A stretch of 64,000 nt of DNA from Escherichia coli (GTDB taxonomy: Bacteria; Pseudomonadota; Gammaproteobacteria; Enterobacterales; Enterobacteriaceae): NCBI RefSeq assembly GCF_003790525.1, contig NZ_CP033635.1, one strand, 5' to 3'. Below the pieces are notes generated by a model that saw nothing but the letters and a program-made list of their open reading frames with translations, ran no database searches and had not been told where the DNA came from. The position numbers and the translations under genes were made by a program. The first letter of the stretch is position 1; each line of letters opens with the position of its first letter. Of this stretch, positions 56,420-64,000 are shown piece by piece.

Positions 56420-56433
56420 CAGCCTTCGGGCTG
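56420..56433. repeat. Left copy of IS4 target-site duplication (cagccttcgggctg)
   Basis: Identical 14-mer directly flanks both ends of the IS; the two copies reconstruct a perfect hairpin aaaaatgccagccttcgggctggcatttttt. Confidence 0.8.
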
Positions 56434-57859
56434 TAATGCCAGTCAGTTAAGCAACTGACTGGCTCTTTTTCGGGGCTGTGGGGTATTTCCAGGGCCTCTC
56501 CTTTACCACTCTCGGGAAGGCCCTTTCCCTTCTTGTCGGTAATTTCACAAGTTGTCCCATACTTGCAAGATCGCGCATCAGCTCCGGTATACGTCCCGGT
56601 GAAGCGCCCTGCAATGTCATCAGCATTCTCATCACCATTCCACATGATTCTGAGAAACTCAGTTGATTCGGCCAGTAACCTTTCAGATATTCCGCCATTT
56701 TAATCATCTGATATCTCACCAGATTATAAGCCAGTAAGACACCCCACAGCTCTTGCTCCACAAGCTCCGGTTTTTTACTTCTCAGCGTCAGCCTGCTCAG
56801 TTGCATCGTCTGTTTTATCTCCCTGTATCCCAGTTCGATTTCCCAGCGATGACTGTACAGATCCGCCATTTCTCCTCCGGGGAAGCGCATGGCGTCCGTC
56901 ATCGACGTCAGCAGATGGCAGACTTTTCCTTTGCGCGTCACGGTCAGCAGGCGGGCTGTCACTTCATTTCCCAGTCCCGGCCACTTTTTTCGTGCCTGCG
57001 GGCTGGTTTTCAGCTTCACCAGATGATCGCCTTTACCCAGTTTTCTGATCTCTTCATATTGCGCTCCCTTTCTGAGAGGTATCATCCAGTGGCGGTGTTC
57101 TCCCGCCAGGCTCCAGGCATTTAACAGTCCCAGTGAGTAATAACCTTTATCCATTAACGTCAGAGTGTTATCGCCGGTTTGTTCTATAAGTTGCTCAGCA
57201 AGCTCATTTTCGCTGTTCTTCATCGTGCCGAAGGCTGCAGCCGTCAGCAGATGGCTGGTCAGTTCCATCTGGCAGACCATTTTGACCTGCGGGTAGAGCG
57301 CCGGGTTCCCGGCATGTGTCTGGCGGGGGAAGGCTGCATCGTTCTCTGGTGTATCCGGTGTGCGCCAGAACACACCATCGATGGCCAGCAGGGTCAGGCC
57401 GCACCAGTGCGGATGCGGCGTGGCGTTATGCCAGAGCTGCGCTGTTTTCGTGAACACGCGGCGGACAGCCTCACTTCCCAGGCGCTGGCGGGCCTGAATA
57501 ACGGCACTGGGGGCAACGAAGGGGCGATTGCCCGGCAGCATGATGTCCAGGCGATTCACAATCTGGTGAAGAGGTTCTTTACGCTCAAGCGCCATGCCAA
57601 CAATACACCAGACCATCATTTCGAGGGGAAGACGGCGCTTGCGTAGCGTTACAGTACCTGATTCGGCAAGGCAACGAGAGATGAGTTCGGGGTCGAGGTA
57701 ATCCCCCAGAGAAGTCAGTGGGTTACGCAGAGAATCGTAACGGGATACCAGATCAAGAGCCTGTCCAATGTGCATAAAAAAATCCGGAAACAAGTGAGCG
57801 TTTCCGGATTCTTACACAGCCACTGGATCGGTCAACTGATCCTTAACTGATCGGCATTA
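56434..57859 (-). mobile_element. IS4 insertion sequence (1426 bp) with imperfect 18-bp terminal inverted repeats
   Basis: Ends taatgccagtcagttaag ... cttaactgatcggcatta (16/18 complementary); encodes an IS4-family DDE transposase; flanked by a 14-bp direct repeat. Confidence 0.9.
56447..57775 (-). CDS. insG: IS4 transposase
   Basis: 442 aa from [31 protein letters not shown], which I recognise as the IS4 transposase N-terminus. Confidence 0.9.
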
Positions 57860-57873
57860 CAGCCTTCGGGCTG
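57860..57873. repeat. Right copy of IS4 target-site duplication (cagccttcgggctg)
   Basis: See left copy. Confidence 0.8.
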
Positions 57874-57891
57874 GCATTTTTTATGGCTGAG

Positions 57892-58764
57892 TTACCAGCG
57901 GCCAGACGCGCCGCCACCGCCAGAAGAACCGCCACCTCCGTTAAATCCGCCGCCAGTTGAGCCGCCACCAGAACCGCCGCTGTCTGAATGATAACTTCTA
58001 CCTGATGCTTTTTTCTGTGGGACACATAACCAGGTAAAGACCATAATGATGGTGAAAGCAAAAAAGAAGGAAAATACAGCAATGGAAAAAGTTTGATCGG
58101 AGAACAGGAATAAATCTATAAGATAGACTGTTGAAATACAAACACTGCTTTTAAATGCCCGACAAAAATTATTGCCTTGATGAAAAAACCAGAAAGGGAA
58201 GAACATCACTGCAAATACCCAAAAAATAGCAAAGTAGTAATGATCACTGGAAGACGCTGATTCACTTTCTGAAGGATTAGACGAATATTGGTGTTGTGAA
58301 GTGAGTTGGTTATTCAAAGCGATTATAGCTAATTCTAATCCCTTAGCTAATTTTTGTTTTTTAAAGGCGGGTATCATGATGCTACGGATGATATTGCCAG
58401 CCAGAGCATCGGTTACCTTTTCTTCCAGCCCATAACCTACCTGGATGCGGACAGTACGATCCGACCAGGCAACAATGATCAGTATCCCATCATTACGTTT
58501 GGCATCTCCTAAACGCCAATTGTCAAAAACTCTTGTAGCATATTGTTCAATAGAATCGTCTCCGGTGGATGGCACTATTAATACAGCGACCTGTGCCCGT
58601 GTTTTTTGTGTAATATCCTGCAGCTGTTGTGTTAGTGATTGTTGTTCAGACGTGCTTAAGGTACCAGTAATATCGGTCACCTGTTGGCGCAGCTCCGGCA
58701 CAGCAATTTGCTGGGCAAGCACAGGAAGGCACCATAAAGTGAGTAGAAAAAGGATTATACGCAT
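57892..58764 (-). CDS. ygcG: TPM-domain membrane protein, YgcG-like (signal peptide, TPM domain, TM segments, Gly/Ser-rich C-terminal tail ending GRW)
   Basis: 290 aa from ATG 58764 ([17 protein letters not shown]); length as recalled for K-12 YgcG; the ORF-track start 4 codons upstream is a TTG and is rejected. Confidence 0.75.
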
Positions 58765-58769
58765 AACGA

Positions 58770-59918
58770 TCACCAACGGTCGGATGAACCGCCGCCTCCT
58801 GAAGAACCGCCGCCACCGCGGAAAGAATTTTTCGACGAAGAGCGAGAATGAGCATTACGATTCCCCGTTTTCCTGTTGCTTTTTTCTCCTGACCCCAGCT
58901 TAAGATTGCCAGTAAATTTGGCCACAATGATCAGCAGAACGATGCCAGCAATGGTTATTGGGCCGATAAAATGATCAATTAACCCAATAATTGTTGAGAT
59001 GAATGCTATATCTTTATTACTGGCGAATACCAGGCACCATCCCACAACAATTATCAGCAGCACGACAAACAATGAGTTTCGTTCGGATTGAGAAACCTGC
59101 TGAGTCGTCTTTTGTTTTTTCACTTTAGCGTTTTTATTTTTTGGGGCCAGCATCATAGGAAATACGCGATACATATGAAAAATTACCGCGAGACGCTGCC
59201 AGCAGGTTGCTGCGAAAAATAAACTAAAACAAACGAGCGATACCCGCCGAATGATGACATCATCCTGAAAGAAGAAAAACCAGACCATAGGAGTAATCAT
59301 CGATATCATCCATATGCCAGGCCCGGGACGGCTGGTAAATCGCCAGAGGACAACGATGGCAACGATCATCAGTAATGTCCAGGCAAGACATGGCAGCGAG
59401 CGTTGCGGATTAGCAAACAGATGATTGGCTAAAGCATCCAAAGGGCTAAGATTCGCTTTTATATAGGTAAACTGTGCGATGCCTTCAATTCCCTGCGTTA
59501 ACCCGGAGAAGAGATTATTTTTTTTGAATTCCGGTTGCATATGGTAATGAACAATTTGCGCAGCTTGTTCCGGTGGCAGCATCTCTTTCAGTCCATGCCC
59601 AATCTTCATTGACGCCAGCCCTTCCGGCCAAACGACGAGAATTAAGATACCTTCGCCGTACCGCTTCTCTCCAACGGGTTTCCAGTGATATAACCCGTAG
59701 CTCTGAGAGGCTGCAAGTTTAATGTTTTTGCCCCCTGTGGTCGGCGTAACCAACACGGCCACCTGGAAGTGGTTTTGCTGCTCGAGAGTCTGTAATTGTT
59801 GATTTAAAGCAGTTTGTTCTTCTGTCGTTAATGTCCCGGTTAAGTCAGTTACTGAAGGCAATTGTTCAGCGAATGCCTGGAAACCATATAGCATCAGAAG
59901 TAAGAGAAAAATACGCAT
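58770..59918 (-). CDS. TPM-domain membrane protein, paralogue 2 (extended multi-TM region, Gly-rich tail ending DRW)
   Basis: 382 aa; signal peptide [20 protein letters not shown]-like core ([20 protein letters not shown]), tail [15 protein letters not shown]; AAGGA RBS; 5 nt upstream of ygcG-like gene. Confidence 0.75.
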
Positions 59919-59932
59919 TTCAATTCCTTTTG

Positions 59933-60826
59933 TTACCAGCGCCCGGAGGCGCCACCGCCGCCAGATGAACCGCCGCCGCCGCGGAAATTGTCATTGTCGA
60001 ATGAAGAGGATGACGATGACGAATAGTGGGAGGAAGAATTACTTCTTGTATGGCGTGATGGCTGGTTGGTATTACGCATCGAATCCCGAACCTTTTTGCC
60101 GAAGGGAGTAAAAGCGATGGCGACAGCCAGGAACGGTGTGGCGAAGCAGAGTAATGTTGCGAGCACTCCCCAGCTTCCGCTGAAACCTGCTATAGGTAAA
60201 ACAAAGGCCAGTACAATAGCTGCGAAGCAAATCAGTCCCAGCGTTTTGATATATCCTCTGGCAGAAATAAACGTCAGTATTATCGCCCAGACTAACAAAG
60301 CCCACCAACCGCTAAAGGGCAAAGGGTGATCGGTCGGTGTTATCGTTGCTGAATTATTCCCCGTCAGGCGACTTTCAATATCGTTGATCCCCTTTTGTAA
60401 ACCACCAGCCAGGTCGCCTTTTTTAAATGCCGGAATAATACTGTTGCGAATAATTTTCCCGGACTGTACATCCGTAATAATACCTTCCAGTCCGTAACCG
60501 ATTTCAATACGCACGGTATGATCCTGCCAGGCGACTAACAGTAGAACGCCATCATCGCGGTCTTTATCACCCGGTTTCCAGCTATCGAATACCCGCGTTG
60601 CGTACTGCTCGATGGTTTCATCGCCTGTTGTATCAACCACTAACACGACCAACTGTGCGTGGTTTTTTTGCGTCAGGGCTTTAATCTGGTTGGTCAGGGT
60701 GTTTACTTCGCTGTTTGTTAATGTGCCGGTTAAGTCATTCACATACTTGGGGGATTCAGGTACTGGAATTTGTGTGGCAAACACAGATGAACAGAAGAAA
60801 GCCATAAGGAAGATAAAATTTCGCAT
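59933..60826 (-). CDS. TPM-domain membrane protein, paralogue 1 (Ser-rich + Gly-rich tail ending GRW)
   Basis: 297 aa from ATG 60826 (MRNFIFLMAFFCSSVFA); TPM-like core (LTGTL..QLVVLVV..IEIGYGLEGI); tail [15 protein letters not shown]; 13 nt after the lemA stop. Confidence 0.75.
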   Translation of the reverse strand: MRNFIFLMAFFCSSVFATQIPVPESPKYVNDLTGTLTNSEVNTLTNQIKALTQKNHAQLVVLVVDTTGDETIEQYATRVFDSWKPGDKDRDDGVLLLVAWQDHTVRIEIGYGLEGIITDVQSGKIIRNSIIPAFKKGDLAGGLQKGINDIESRLTGNNSATITPTDHPLPFSGWWALLVWAIILTFISARGYIKTLGLICFAAIVLAFVLPIAGFSGSWGVLATLLCFATPFLAVAIAFTPFGKKVRDSMRNTNQPSRHTRSNSSSHYSSSSSSSFDNDNFRGGGGSSGGGGASGRW

Positions 60827-60839
60827 AGAACTTCCCCGC

Positions 60840-61442
60840 TTAATGCGCATTAGCATTCTGGCTAAAATCTATTGTTGGGGCTTTACTTACTGCGGTGACA
60901 TCATCCGGCAAATAATTTTTCTTTGGTGTGTAATCCATGACCTTTGCGGTTAATACAGCGGGGAATTTGCGGATAGTGACATTATATTGTTCAATGGCTT
61001 TAATATATCTTCCTCGCGCAACGGCAATTCTATTTTCACTTCCTTCGAGCTGTACCATTAAGTTTTGATAGAGTTCCTGAGCTTTTAACTCAGGGTAACG
61101 TTCACTAATTATCGTTAACTGACCGAGAGTGCGAGACACCTGCGCCTGGGCTTGTTGCCAGGCTTGTAATTTTTGCGCATCTCCCGGAGCTTGCTGAAGA
61201 TCGCTACTGGCGCGATTAGCCTGGCTACGTGCCAATGTTACGGCTTCCAGTACCTCTTGTTCATGGCTAGAATAACCTTTAATACTGGCGACAAGATTAG
61301 GAATAAGATCGGCGCGACGTTGATATTGATTCAATACCTCAGACCAGGAGGCGTTAACCTGCTCATCATAGGTTTGAATATCGTTATATCCACAGCCTGA
61401 TAAATTGACAATAAATATAATTACGATGAATATCCTGAGCAT
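60840..61442 (-). CDS. LemA-family protein (probable lipoprotein, lipobox LSGC)
   Basis: 200 aa; N-terminal hydrophobic segment with Cys at position 17 in an LSGC lipobox; coiled-coil-rich LemA-like body; first gene of the 4-gene minus-strand cluster. Confidence 0.7.
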   Translation of the reverse strand: MLRIFIVIIFIVNLSGCGYNDIQTYDEQVNASWSEVLNQYQRRADLIPNLVASIKGYSSHEQEVLEAVTLARSQANRASSDLQQAPGDAQKLQAWQQAQAQVSRTLGQLTIISERYPELKAQELYQNLMVQLEGSENRIAVARGRYIKAIEQYNVTIRKFPAVLTAKVMDYTPKKNYLPDDVTAVSKAPTIDFSQNANAH

Positions 61443-61614
61443 GTCTATGTCCCTTTTAATTAATTCCTTAAAACATAATACGCCGCTTCATTTTATTCTT
61501 TATGATCTCATCCACTTTTTGCCTTAAACCTGCCTGTAACAGAATGTTAATAAGACATGATTGTTGTGGCAGGATCTGCAATAATTAACAATTATCCACT
61601 TCACAGAGAATGCT

Positions 61615-62371: not shown

Positions 62372-63379
62372 TTATCGGTAGCGTTTTTGTAGACTGGCAG
62401 GAAGATAACGCTGTAATGGGGATGGCGTTTCACCTTCAATCAGTTGCGAAATAAGTTCAAAGCAGTGAAAAGCAAGTTGGCGATTATCCTGTTGTATTGT
62501 GTCGATTCTTACCGAAAGTGAATCATACAAGTAATGATCATCAAAACTCGCCAGGTGGATTTTACTGTCGAGTAAATTATATTGGCTCATATAGCGCAGA
62601 ACGCCTTCCAGTAATCCACAAGCGGCAGTGAATAAGGCTTTAGGGGGACGTCCTAAACGAGCGCATAGCGCGGCAAACATTTCATAGCCTGAGCTCGGAT
62701 GATAATTACCGTGAATAATCCATTCAGGTTGTAGCGTTACTCCGGCTTGCTGCAAGCCTTGTGTAAATCCTTCCAGTCGATCGCGAGTCGGTGACAAACG
62801 GGGTTGTCCGCCCAGAAAATAGAATTCATCCGGGTGACTCCGTGCAATATCTGCCACCAGAGCGGCGGTGGGAGAAACAGAGTCAGTAATGACCAATGGC
62901 AATGTGCTGCCGTTCATGTGGCGATCGAACAACACAACAGGTAATTGCTCGCTAAGTTTTTGATAGTCATTATCATGCAGCATACTGGATGCGACGATTA
63001 ACCCATCAACCTGGCGGGCAATCATATTGTTCACCACCATTGTTTCCTGTGAAGGATTTTCATCAGTACAGGATATGAGGAGTTGGACTCCCGCTTCCCG
63101 ACACAATGTTTCCAGTTCATGGGAAAATACTGCAAATCCGTAGTTAGTGATTTCAGGAACGACGAGACCAATGGTGTGACTGCGGTTGTCCCGTAATGAG
63201 CGGGCATGAATGCTGGGCTGATAATGCTGCTGTTGGGCAATACTCAGCACACGCTCACGCGTTTCCTGCGCAACACGTAACTCTTTGCCACGACCATTGA
63301 GAACCAGACTGGCGGTTGCTTTCGACACTCCCGCCAGTTCAGCAATGTCTTTAATAGTAACGCGTTTGGTTTTTCTCAC
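62372..63379 (-). CDS. LacI-family transcriptional repressor, sucrose-operon type (CscR/ScrR-like)
   Basis: 335 aa; N-terminal [26 protein letters not shown] resembles Cra/ScrR-type LacI regulators; immediately downstream of a GH32 hydrolase gene in the same direction. Confidence 0.7.
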
Positions 63380-63404
63380 GACGAGGATCCGTAATTCAAA
63401 ACCC

Positions 63405-64000
63405 TCATTCTACCATGCAGGCGCGTAGCGACCAGTAGTGTAACGTGACGTCAGACTCGCCCTGTAATATCAGCGAAGCTGGATGATGGGGAAAATAACG
63501 ATTGCTCATTACGCCTTCGCCATTATTGATGAATATCTCTATGCTGGAACTGTCACAGAGAATCTTCAGTGACGTTACGCTTCCTCGCCAGTAACGAGTT
63601 AGTTTCTCTTGCCCTGCAAGGCTTTTCCTCTGTAGTTGAATACCATCGTCATTAAGATGCAGTGCCAGTGCGTTGCCAAAATTCAGATGTAGCTCGCCTG
63701 ATGGAATGATGTCCATTTCCAGACGTTCAATTGCGACAGGCGGCGCATGATCCGCTTTTCCTTGCCAGAAGTGTTCAGCTTCACGCAGTTGCGCGAGTTC
63801 CCTGATTGGCATCTGAAATAATTTTCCCTTCTGGAATGAGAGTTCGCGAAAACAGGTCATTTGATGCTGCCAATGATGCTTTCTGGTTGGTTGCAACATC
63901 TCTTCGCCATCAGGAACCCCCATCCAGCCGACCAGTAATCGTCGCCCGTCCGGGGCTTCCATCGTCTGTGGTGCATAGAATTCAAATCCCGCATCCAGCT
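63405..64000 (-). CDS. Glycoside hydrolase family 32 (sucrose-6-phosphate hydrolase/invertase-like), C-terminal part; gene continues past the window edge
   Basis: Reading frame stays open to the window edge (..[27 protein letters not shown]..); C-terminal region resembles the beta-sandwich domain of sucrose hydrolases. Confidence 0.6.

Follow-up and report, generated by a model that had tools for sequence, protein, structure and literature searches.

An ancestral lemA operon with three YgcG-type TPM genes in Escherichia coli, predicted to have been reduced in K-12

Introduction

What do the four genes that lie between queE and eno in a 64,000-nucleotide stretch of Escherichia coli DNA (contig NZ_CP033635.1; hereafter the window) encode, and are they an addition to the E. 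coli chromosome or part of its older stock? The block consists of lemA followed by three paralogous genes for membrane proteins with a TPM domain, called TPM1, TPM2, and TPM3 (ygcG) here. The window is identical in sequence to RefSeq record NC_010498 of E. coli SMS-3-5, the annotation of which was used as the reference. A preliminary description of the window had regarded lemA and two of the paralogues as accessory genes. We conclude with high confidence that the block is a vertically inherited chromosomal operon encoding a LemA lipoprotein and three inner-membrane YgcG-type TPM proteins, and that it represents an Escherichia-specific triplication which has been reduced in K-12 and in about 73% of E. 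coli. Its mechanism is far less certain: that it acts as a stress-induced extracytoplasmic module maintaining or assembling membrane complexes is a tentative proposal, and the explanation as a whole, identity and mechanism taken together, is evenly poised between right and wrong.

Searches of the literature (LemA with TPM, ygcG, yqcG, and the COG and Pfam families) returned no functional study of the LemA-TPM pair, in agreement with the preliminary statement that such pairs have no established function. What is new here is the triplicated form of this already known but uncharacterised module.

Results

The first gene of the block encodes a LemA protein, as had been proposed. In a Pfam profile search, the LemA model (PF04011/COG1704) was matched over its full length (1-149/149) with an i-E of 1.2e-48, and the protein also matches the structure of Thermotoga maritima LemA (PDB 2ETD) at 1.1e-32. 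Its N terminus begins MLRIFIVIIFIVNLSGC, a hydrophobic lipoprotein signal with the lipobox LSGC and Cys17; all of 14 proteobacterial homologues have the residues Gly16 and Cys17. The protein is predicted to be periplasmic, membrane anchored, and folded as a four-helix bundle. LemA-like domains have been tied to membrane remodelling or scaffolding in the literature, and the LemA fold family is common to E. coli LemA and to MamQ, a protein of magnetosome membrane formation. However, when tested against the MamQ equivalog (NCBIfam NF040966), LemA scored 91.4 bits, below the cutoff of 250, and unlike MamQ, the E. coli protein is a lipoprotein, does not have the MamQ N-terminal region, and stands in no magnetosome context.

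The three following genes all encode TPM proteins. The Pfam TPM_phosphatase model (PF04536) was found in each of them at E<=0.001, with the best value for TPM1 (9.6e-41), confirming the domain assignment made earlier. All three proteins share one architecture, in which a Sec-type signal peptide is followed by the TPM domain, hydrophobic helices, and a tail that is first K/R-rich and then Ser/Gly-rich. Having a signal peptide, a TPM domain, transmembrane (TM) helices, and a GGGGx[FS]GGGGASGxW tail, they are all YgcG-type (COG1512-like) proteins. According to hydropathy, there are three hydrophobic helices in TPM1, three in TPM3, and about five in TPM2. The topology given in the preliminary description thus stands for the signal peptide, the TPM core, and the TM helices; the cytoplasmic position of the tail agrees with hydropathy, but AlphaFold2 (AF2) docks the tail on the periplasmic domain.

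Overall identity to TPM1 is 33% and 41% for the other two paralogues. The paralogues are old: their TPM domains are 39 to 53% identical in pairwise comparisons and the TM regions only 18 to 27%. In an alignment of 52 family members, the conserved polar residues of the TPM family are D31, Q58, R78, D102, R106, E114, and D119. TPM1, which harbors a Ser-rich linker before the tail, has kept all near-invariant family residues. The TPM domain of TPM2 is degenerate at conserved polar positions: it carries the substitutions R78Q, D92E, D102E, R106S, E114K, and D119P at near-invariant family positions, five of which (R78Q, D102E, R106S, E114K, and D119P) replace near-invariant polar residues. TPM2 is also predicted to have a K-rich cytoplasmic loop.

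A structure was predicted with AF2 for one paralogue, TPM1, on the basis of the 52-sequence alignment. In this model, the predicted local distance difference test score (pLDDT) of the TPM domain is above 90, and the TM helices span residues 174-189, 194-213, and 218-239. The TPM fold, a four-stranded sheet with four flanking helices, superimposes on solved TPM domains. Bizionia argentinensis BA41 (5ANP), the best solved sequence match of the TPM domains (1.6e-30), gave a TM-score of 0.89 to 0.91 when compared with the TPM domain of TPM1 by Foldseek. Further Foldseek matches of the TPM1 model were 7TBR, 2KW7, 3PVH, and 8C7I, with PG_0361, TLP18.3, and Psb32 among them. A chain of the mycobacterial CIII2CIV2 supercomplex was matched as well (8OVC_V, 6ADQ_J, 8HCR_J, and 6HWH_O; E 2e-3 to 8e-3), and this chain is the second case, after photosystem II (PSII), of a TPM fold on an energy-transducing membrane complex. 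The Psb32 equivalog (NCBIfam NF047379) gave 33 to 37 bits against a cutoff of 160, and it did not match TPM2.

The place of this block in the wider family can be read from a LemA profile scan of species-representative genomes, which yielded at least 80 proteobacterial loci, a convenience sample and not a census. Among the matches listed, 68 loci had enough downstream sequence to be evaluated, and the following counts refer to these. A TPM gene starts at most 400 nucleotides (nt) downstream of lemA on the same strand in 61 of the 68, often with a 4-nt overlap, and it carries the Gly tail in 59 of these 61. The pairing is likewise found in Pseudomonas and Klebsiella. A third gene, encoding a TPM protein of about 165 residues without a signal peptide and ending in NELPDxPVV, is present in 29/68; its motif reads NELPDxPVV[LM] in loci L019-L089 (e.g., L051 7675-8172), and the protein is presumably cytoplasmic. 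Among solved structures, BA41 and BA42 of B. argentinensis each represent one of the two TPM types, and we take their genes to lie in one operon with a lemA gene.

The Escherichia block is similar to this canonical operon (LemA, YgcG-type TPM, short TPM) in having lemA as its first gene, with a co-directional gene for a signal-peptide TPM protein with a Gly tail immediately behind it. However, the canonical operon has one Gly-tail paralogue as opposed to three in Escherichia, and the short TPM gene is missing at the Escherichia locus, no open reading frame (ORF) of this kind being present in the window between 57800 and 61640. More than one Gly-tail TPM gene was seen only at the E. albertii locus among the 68 listed. 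TPM2 departs from the canonical protein by its five TM helices and its degenerate TPM site, and its full-length relatives were found only in Escherichia among 5.8 billion proteins, the scores going from 1e-77 to 1e-21 outside the genus. Since E. albertii has the only multi-paralogue locus among these 68 and full-length TPM2 relatives are confined to Escherichia, the basic unit would be lemA with one YgcG-type TPM gene, and the triplication is most simply read as an innovation of Escherichia.

We then compared the locus with its counterparts in related bacteria. In E. albertii, the queE-eno interval contains lemA and three TPM genes, and Klebsiella quasipneumoniae harbors lemA and one TPM gene at the same site. 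Neither the genome census nor a tblastn search with LemA found an E. coli-type copy on a true plasmid or phage; tblastn against phages and plasmids gave only distant homologues of less than 60% identity, apart from a single 96% "plasmid" match, a 4.9-Mb record that is taken to be a chromosome. Because the same site is occupied in E. albertii and Klebsiella and there is no mobile E. coli-type copy, these comparisons indicate that the four-gene state is ancestral in Escherichia and that the K-12 state is a reduction. Nor does the block look like a horizontally acquired island, given its occupied site in the two relatives, its chromosomal copies, and its mild GC deficit. A mobile origin had also been considered and was ruled out by the distance of the phage and plasmid homologues. 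As a separate observation, LemA homologues of 28 to 47% identity are found in records labelled Enterococcus, Listeria, Acinetobacter, and uncultured phages.

The reading of the block as accessory is consequently correct as regards polymorphism, but the idea of extra material on a K-12-like ground state is contradicted by E. albertii, by Klebsiella, and by a remnant in K-12 itself. K-12 had been thought to carry a single gene between eno and queE, which is wrong: it carries two, yqcG (46 codons) and ygcG. This pair shares its chromosomal site and upstream regulatory DNA with the block, but K-12 lacks lemA, TPM1, and TPM2. The 117 nt adjoining queE are identical to K-12, barring one base in strain D1, and the alignment of K-12 with SMS-3-5 runs on into yqcG/lemA, with 84% identity over 225 nt. 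A further ungapped stretch of about 54 nt is 65 to 69% identical in the same reading frame (z = 3-5 compared to shuffles). K-12 yqcG aligns with the 5' untranslated region and the first 20 or so codons of lemA. YqcG residues 12 to 41 align in frame with LemA residues 1 to 30, the lipobox being lost, and the first 13 or so codons of yqcG correspond to the former lemA leader (K-12 yqcG, L005 1558-1698, compared with 61380-61614 of the window). We propose with moderate confidence that yqcG (46 aa) is a relic of the lemA 5' end. Similarity of yqcG to the lemA 3' end as well was noticed by eye and in the E. albertii alignment, and it was not stable across targets.

The second K-12 gene, ygcG, is 91.6% identical to TPM3 over 728 nt by BLASTN. 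At the protein level, K-12 YgcG and TPM3 are 90.5% identical over residues 63 to 157 and 84.2% over residues 158 to 290, compared to only 43.5% over residues 1 to 62. TPM3 is, by this comparison, the orthologue of K-12 ygcG over residues 63 to 290, and residues 1 to 62 of K-12 YgcG are a divergent variant, 35 to 44% identical to any paralogue. Because of these low values (35.5% to TPM1 and 43.5% to TPM3, with no nucleotide match to either), there is no support for deriving K-12 ygcG from a simple deletion that would have produced a TPM1::TPM3 hybrid.

To describe the distribution of the operon, we used a census of 5,426 complete E. coli genomes. lemA was found in 1,454 of them (27%), always as a single chromosomal copy, TPM2 in 1,114 (20.5%), and at least 80% of the whole block in 1,100 (about 20%). 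Approximately 340 genomes (6%) have lemA without TPM2. By subtraction, about 73% have no lemA, and the sampled rows of these show the K-12 arrangement yqcG-ygcG. The suspected presence/absence polymorphism is therefore real, and K-12 and most E. coli are without the full four-gene block. In strain D1, an example of the intermediate state, lemA is accompanied by an intact TPM1, and an unrelated 120-aa ORF (L002 3603-3965) takes the place of TPM2 and TPM3. This ORF is annotated as hypothetical and has three hydrophobic segments.

Individual alleles vary further. TPM1 of O157:H7 has a nonsense codon at position 225, and TPM3 of this strain has a TM region of a different type, resembling that of E. 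albertii. In clone D i14, one GGGGS unit (5 residues) is deleted from the TPM1 tail. SMS-3-5, clone D i14, and E. albertii each have all four ORFs intact. The RefSeq annotation pipeline (Prokaryotic Genome Annotation Pipeline [PGAP]) labels TPM1 of SMS-3-5 and D1 as a partial pseudogene ("incomplete; missing C-terminus"). Contrary to this label, the ORF is complete through the conserved C terminus in both strains (L010 3607-4500; L002 4001-4906), and the 224-aa TPM1 product of O157:H7 is probably the annotation template behind the "partial" label elsewhere.

Synonymous divergence (dS) within E. coli ranges from 0.07 to 0.24 at this locus, compared to 0.03 for eno. The D1 TPM1 allele reaches a dS of 0.94 with respect to SMS-3-5, thereby exceeding E. 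albertii TPM1 (0.40). Because of this excess over eno, the locus must carry old or imported alleles. The ratio of nonsynonymous to synonymous divergence (dN/dS) is 0.03 to 0.17 for lemA, 0.13 to 0.17 for TPM1, 0.24 to 0.36 for TPM2, and 0.22 to 0.34 for TPM3, i.e., 0.03 to 0.36 across all four genes in comparisons that include E. albertii. All four genes are thus under purifying selection, which speaks for functional and not decaying genes.

The C-terminal tail deserves separate mention. The consensus derived from 61 proteins is [SG]GGGGx[FS]GGGGASGxW-COOH, in which both Gly runs and the final W are invariant and the A and S near-invariant. The SMS-3-5 paralogues end in [AS]S[GD]RW, S and D replacing A and G at two positions in TPM2. 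The three SMS-3-5 tails differ at 10 to 13 of 48 nt (21 to 27%), mostly synonymously, but at only 1 to 3 of 16 residues. Since the nucleotide differences are mostly synonymous, the tail is kept by selection on the peptide; for its part, gene conversion as the source of the alike tails is ruled out by the extent and the synonymous nature of these differences. In E. albertii, TPM2 lacks the final Trp that is invariant elsewhere and ends in ...GGGGASDR or ...GGGGASGR (two records, L006 7546-8682 and L012), and the TPM3 gene call starts at the TPM2 stop (two records).

In the full-length AF2 model of TPM1, the last 8 or so residues have a pLDDT of about 94 and form a short beta strand, despite the 30-residue disordered linker that precedes them. 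When residues 158 to 297 were predicted alone, from a shallower alignment (35 versus 52 sequences), the tail had a pLDDT of about 50 and no structure. This drop in confidence once the TPM domain is removed shows that AF2 docks the TPM1 tail on that domain. A different arrangement follows from hydropathy and the positive-inside rule, by which the TPM domain is periplasmic and the tail cytoplasmic.

The layout of the locus is given in Table 1. As described earlier, the four genes are co-directional on the minus strand, closely spaced, and divergent from queE, which the ORF listing and the RefSeq annotation both confirm. The block sits between queE and eno in the order lemA-TPM1-TPM2-TPM3, with spacers of 13, 14, and 5 nt, each of which contains a Shine-Dalgarno-like purine run; queE lies on the opposite strand, 172 nt upstream of lemA. 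With a GC content of 45.2%, compared to 50.5% for eno, 51.8% for queE, and 50.0% for the window, the block is AT-richer than its flanks, as had been noted, albeit mildly.

Table 1. Positions in the window of the operon and of the features adjoining it
Feature	Coordinates	Strand	Product	Basis or remark
lemA	60840-61442	minus	200 aa	ORF listing and RefSeq annotation of NC_010498
TPM1	59933-60826	minus	297 aa	ORF listing and RefSeq annotation
TPM2	58770-59918	minus	382 aa	ORF listing and RefSeq annotation
TPM3 (ygcG)	57892-58764	minus	290 aa	ORF listing and RefSeq annotation
queE-lemA divergent intergenic region	61443-61614	minus		presumed operon promoter/regulatory region
Remaining half of the eno/TPM3 bidirectional terminator hairpin	57860-57881	.		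split by IS4
IS4 insertion	56434-57859	minus		outside the module, directly abuts its 3' end

The queE-lemA intergenic region contains a PhoP-box-like direct repeat, TGTTAC-N5-GGTTTA, at 61541-61525, within the stretch identical to K-12, and a -10-like TATTAT at 61480-61475, which is conserved in three aligned haplotypes. In K-12, the queE/ygcG intergenic region is a site of sigma-S RNA polymerase according to chromatin immunoprecipitation sequencing (ChIP-seq) and genomic systematic evolution of ligands by exponential enrichment (SELEX) (PMC4447067, PMC5493296). Phosphorylated PhoP (PhoP-P) binds DNA upstream of queE in K-12, as seen by electrophoretic mobility shift assay, and deletion of yqcG raises queE expression (PMC4974570). 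The PhoP-box-like repeat would fit this published PhoP binding near queE/yqcG, and the product name given to YqcG in RefSeq is cell envelope stress response protein. For SMS-3-5, we infer a regulatory role of the intergenic region. Rfam gave no non-coding RNA match in the region.

At the other end of the block, SMS-3-5 carries an IS4 insertion of 1426 bp, with an IS4-family transposase ORF (56447-57793), terminal inverted repeats, and a 14-nt target duplication, CAGCCTTCGGGCTG, flanking it at 56420-56433 and 57860-57873. It has no counterpart at this site in clone D i14, O157:H7, or K-12, and the uninterrupted hairpin site in clone D i14 and K-12 reads AAAAATGCCAGCCTTCGGGCTGGCATTTTTT. IS4 landed exactly in the terminator hairpin shared by eno and TPM3, so that both T-runs are parted from the stem, and it may alter transcription termination of eno and of the TPM operon.

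Beyond queE (62372-64000), the window contains genes for a LacI-family regulator, sucrose-6-phosphate hydrolase, and a sucrose phosphotransferase system component. In strains D1 and A28, this position is occupied by an array of clustered regularly interspaced short palindromic repeats (CRISPR) (L002 6706-8015; L003 5209-6213), and strain p11A has the sucrose genes together with K-12-type yqcG/ygcG. Because sucrose genes, CRISPR array, and yqcG-ygcG are combined differently among strains, the whole eno-ygcE interval is a mosaic.

Discussion

The operon would, in the mechanism that we tentatively favor, be transcribed from the conserved queE-proximal region, to which sigma-S polymerase and PhoP bind in K-12, as part of a stationary-phase or envelope-stress response, with joint translation of its closely spaced genes. 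LemA, attached to the periplasmic side of a membrane, would be the partner of three periplasmic TPM domains. By analogy with Psb32/TLP18.3 and with the TPM-fold chain of the mycobacterial CIII2CIV2 supercomplex, these domains might serve as docking or chaperone-like factors in the assembly, stabilisation, or repair of complexes exposed at the periplasmic surface of the cytoplasmic membrane; a true phosphatase role would not be expected. The unrelated TM regions and the degenerate TPM2 site could reflect differing membrane partners or roles of the paralogues, and the common tail could reflect one shared contact or output.

Several published observations bear on this proposal. Psb32 is a late assembly factor of PSII, the maturation of which involves redundant TPM paralogues. 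A chaperone-like role is preferred to a phosphatase role by Ravi et al. (2024) and in the Lipocone paper; a structural paper of 2025 finds no consensus function for the TPM domain. In a Flavobacterium sppA membrane-stress mutant, lemA and a TPM gene are co-induced. Psb32 and TLP18.3 resemble the E. coli proteins in having an extracytoplasmic (lumenal) TPM fold with a C-terminal TM anchor and in being non-essential accessory proteins; however, the equivalog scores are far below the cutoff, and E. coli has no photosystem. A TPM protein, YdjH, is also part of the PspA-YdjG-YdjH-YdjI phage-shock module of Bacillus subtilis, but there are no PspA, band-7, or zinc-ribbon genes in our block, where LemA is the conserved partner instead.

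A number of points weigh against this mechanism. The contact between LemA and the TPM proteins, the client complex, and the phenotype are proposals only. With Gly at its +2 position, LemA may be anchored in either membrane, and an outer-membrane LemA could hardly reach a TPM domain tethered by about 20 residues. The conserved polar residues D31, Q58, R78, D102, R106, E114, and D119 would also fit a catalytic or metal-binding site, and BA41, the closest solved relative, is reported to have ATPase/ADPase activity. Scanning for the sigma-70 consensus picked up no site in the intergenic region, and the overall number of sites was below that of shuffled sequence. Since most E. coli do without lemA and O157:H7 has a nonsense codon in TPM1, the system is dispensable. 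Finally, the placement of the tail on the TPM domain by AF2 clashes with a cytoplasmic tail. This conflict could be settled in several ways: the number of membrane passes may be even, the tail may bind the TPM fold of another protein, a candidate being the signal-peptide-less product of the third gene (which the Escherichia locus does not have), or the docking may be an artefact, AF2 being blind to the membrane.

These points give room to other explanations. The TPM domains could be metal-dependent nucleotidases or phosphatases acting on periplasmic or surface nucleotides or phospho-compounds, with LemA as a membrane scaffold. Such an enzyme would be in agreement with BA41 as the closest solved homologue (1.6e-30; TM-score of about 0.9), with the binding of Mg, Ca, or Mn reported in TPM proteins, and with the set of acidic and basic residues conserved across the 52 family members; phosphatase activity has also been reported for BA42, next to the ATPase/ADPase activity of BA41. 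We nevertheless consider it unlikely, as two recent comparative studies argue against a phosphatase, the 2025 paper sees no consensus function, and TPM2 has lost five conserved polar residues yet is under purifying selection. A simple hydrolase would, moreover, leave the invariant tail and the obligate LemA partner unexplained. Instead, the block might be a dispensable remnant, without a present role in E. coli and disappearing bit by bit, as the roughly 73% of complete genomes without lemA, the 6% or so keeping only lemA and TPM1, the TPM1 nonsense codon in O157:H7, the 5-residue TPM1 tail deletion in clone D i14, and the terminator split by IS4 in SMS-3-5 could suggest. The low dN/dS of all four genes, which also holds between E. 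coli and E. albertii, the intact ORFs in SMS-3-5, clone D i14, and E. albertii, and the tails kept through synonymous change make this improbable. An anti-phage or other conflict system in a variable hotspot is the least credible of these explanations. The locus is polymorphic with divergent alleles (dS of 0.07 to 0.24, and 0.94 for D1 TPM1, versus 0.03 for eno), a CRISPR array lies just beyond queE in many strains, and distant LemA homologues occur in some phage records. Yet the check for a defence-island association, suggested along with the preliminary description, gave no meaningful match in PADLOC-DB 2.0 (one marginal match for LemA, E=0.032, and none for the three TPM proteins), and a defence system was set aside for this reason. 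Likewise, the block has no nuclease, NTPase, or toxin-like domain, its position is conserved across genera with no E. coli-type copy on a plasmid or phage, and lemA is paired with TPM genes across the proteobacterial loci listed.

The tail itself suggests one more possibility, namely, that it is a dedicated ligand of the TPM fold and that the LemA/TPM system works as a trans-envelope switch. As a trans-membrane relay, the tail would couple periplasmic LemA/TPM events to a partner on the tail side, the short TPM protein in canonical operons. We doubt this about as much as we doubt the enzyme, even though the modelled tail is a confident beta strand (pLDDT of about 94) in the full-length protein and unstructured (about 50) without the TPM domain, even though it is the most conserved part of the family (61 proteins) and held by protein-level selection, and even though the third gene, for the TPM protein of about 165 aa without a signal peptide, is found in 29 of the 68 loci listed. 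Escherichia, Klebsiella, and many other taxa have kept the tail although their locus is without a short TPM gene; the truncated AF2 run used 35 sequences versus 52, and because AF2 ignores the membrane, the docking may be artefactual. Two variants can be pictured. In one, the tail is truly periplasmic and would cap the TPM domain of the same molecule, to be displaced by LemA or a client; in the other, a cytoplasmic tail would recruit a TPM-fold partner, i.e., the short third-gene protein of canonical operons. If this were true, the three Escherichia paralogues would stand in for the short TPM partner, with one shared output.

Whichever mechanism applies, the near-invariant C-terminal peptide is a concrete handle for finding the partner of the system. 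Our reading of the locus as an ancestral operon reduced in K-12 also suggests that YqcG, the small "envelope stress" protein of K-12, descends from a degraded lemA, and it corrects a recurrent annotation error by which intact TPM1 genes are labelled partial pseudogenes. LemA-TPM pairs occur across the bacteria sampled, and E. coli offers a natural allelic series at one locus: the four-gene operon, lemA with one TPM gene, and a lemA relic with one TPM gene. With this series, natural alleles can be compared or exchanged to test the system in the best-developed model organism.

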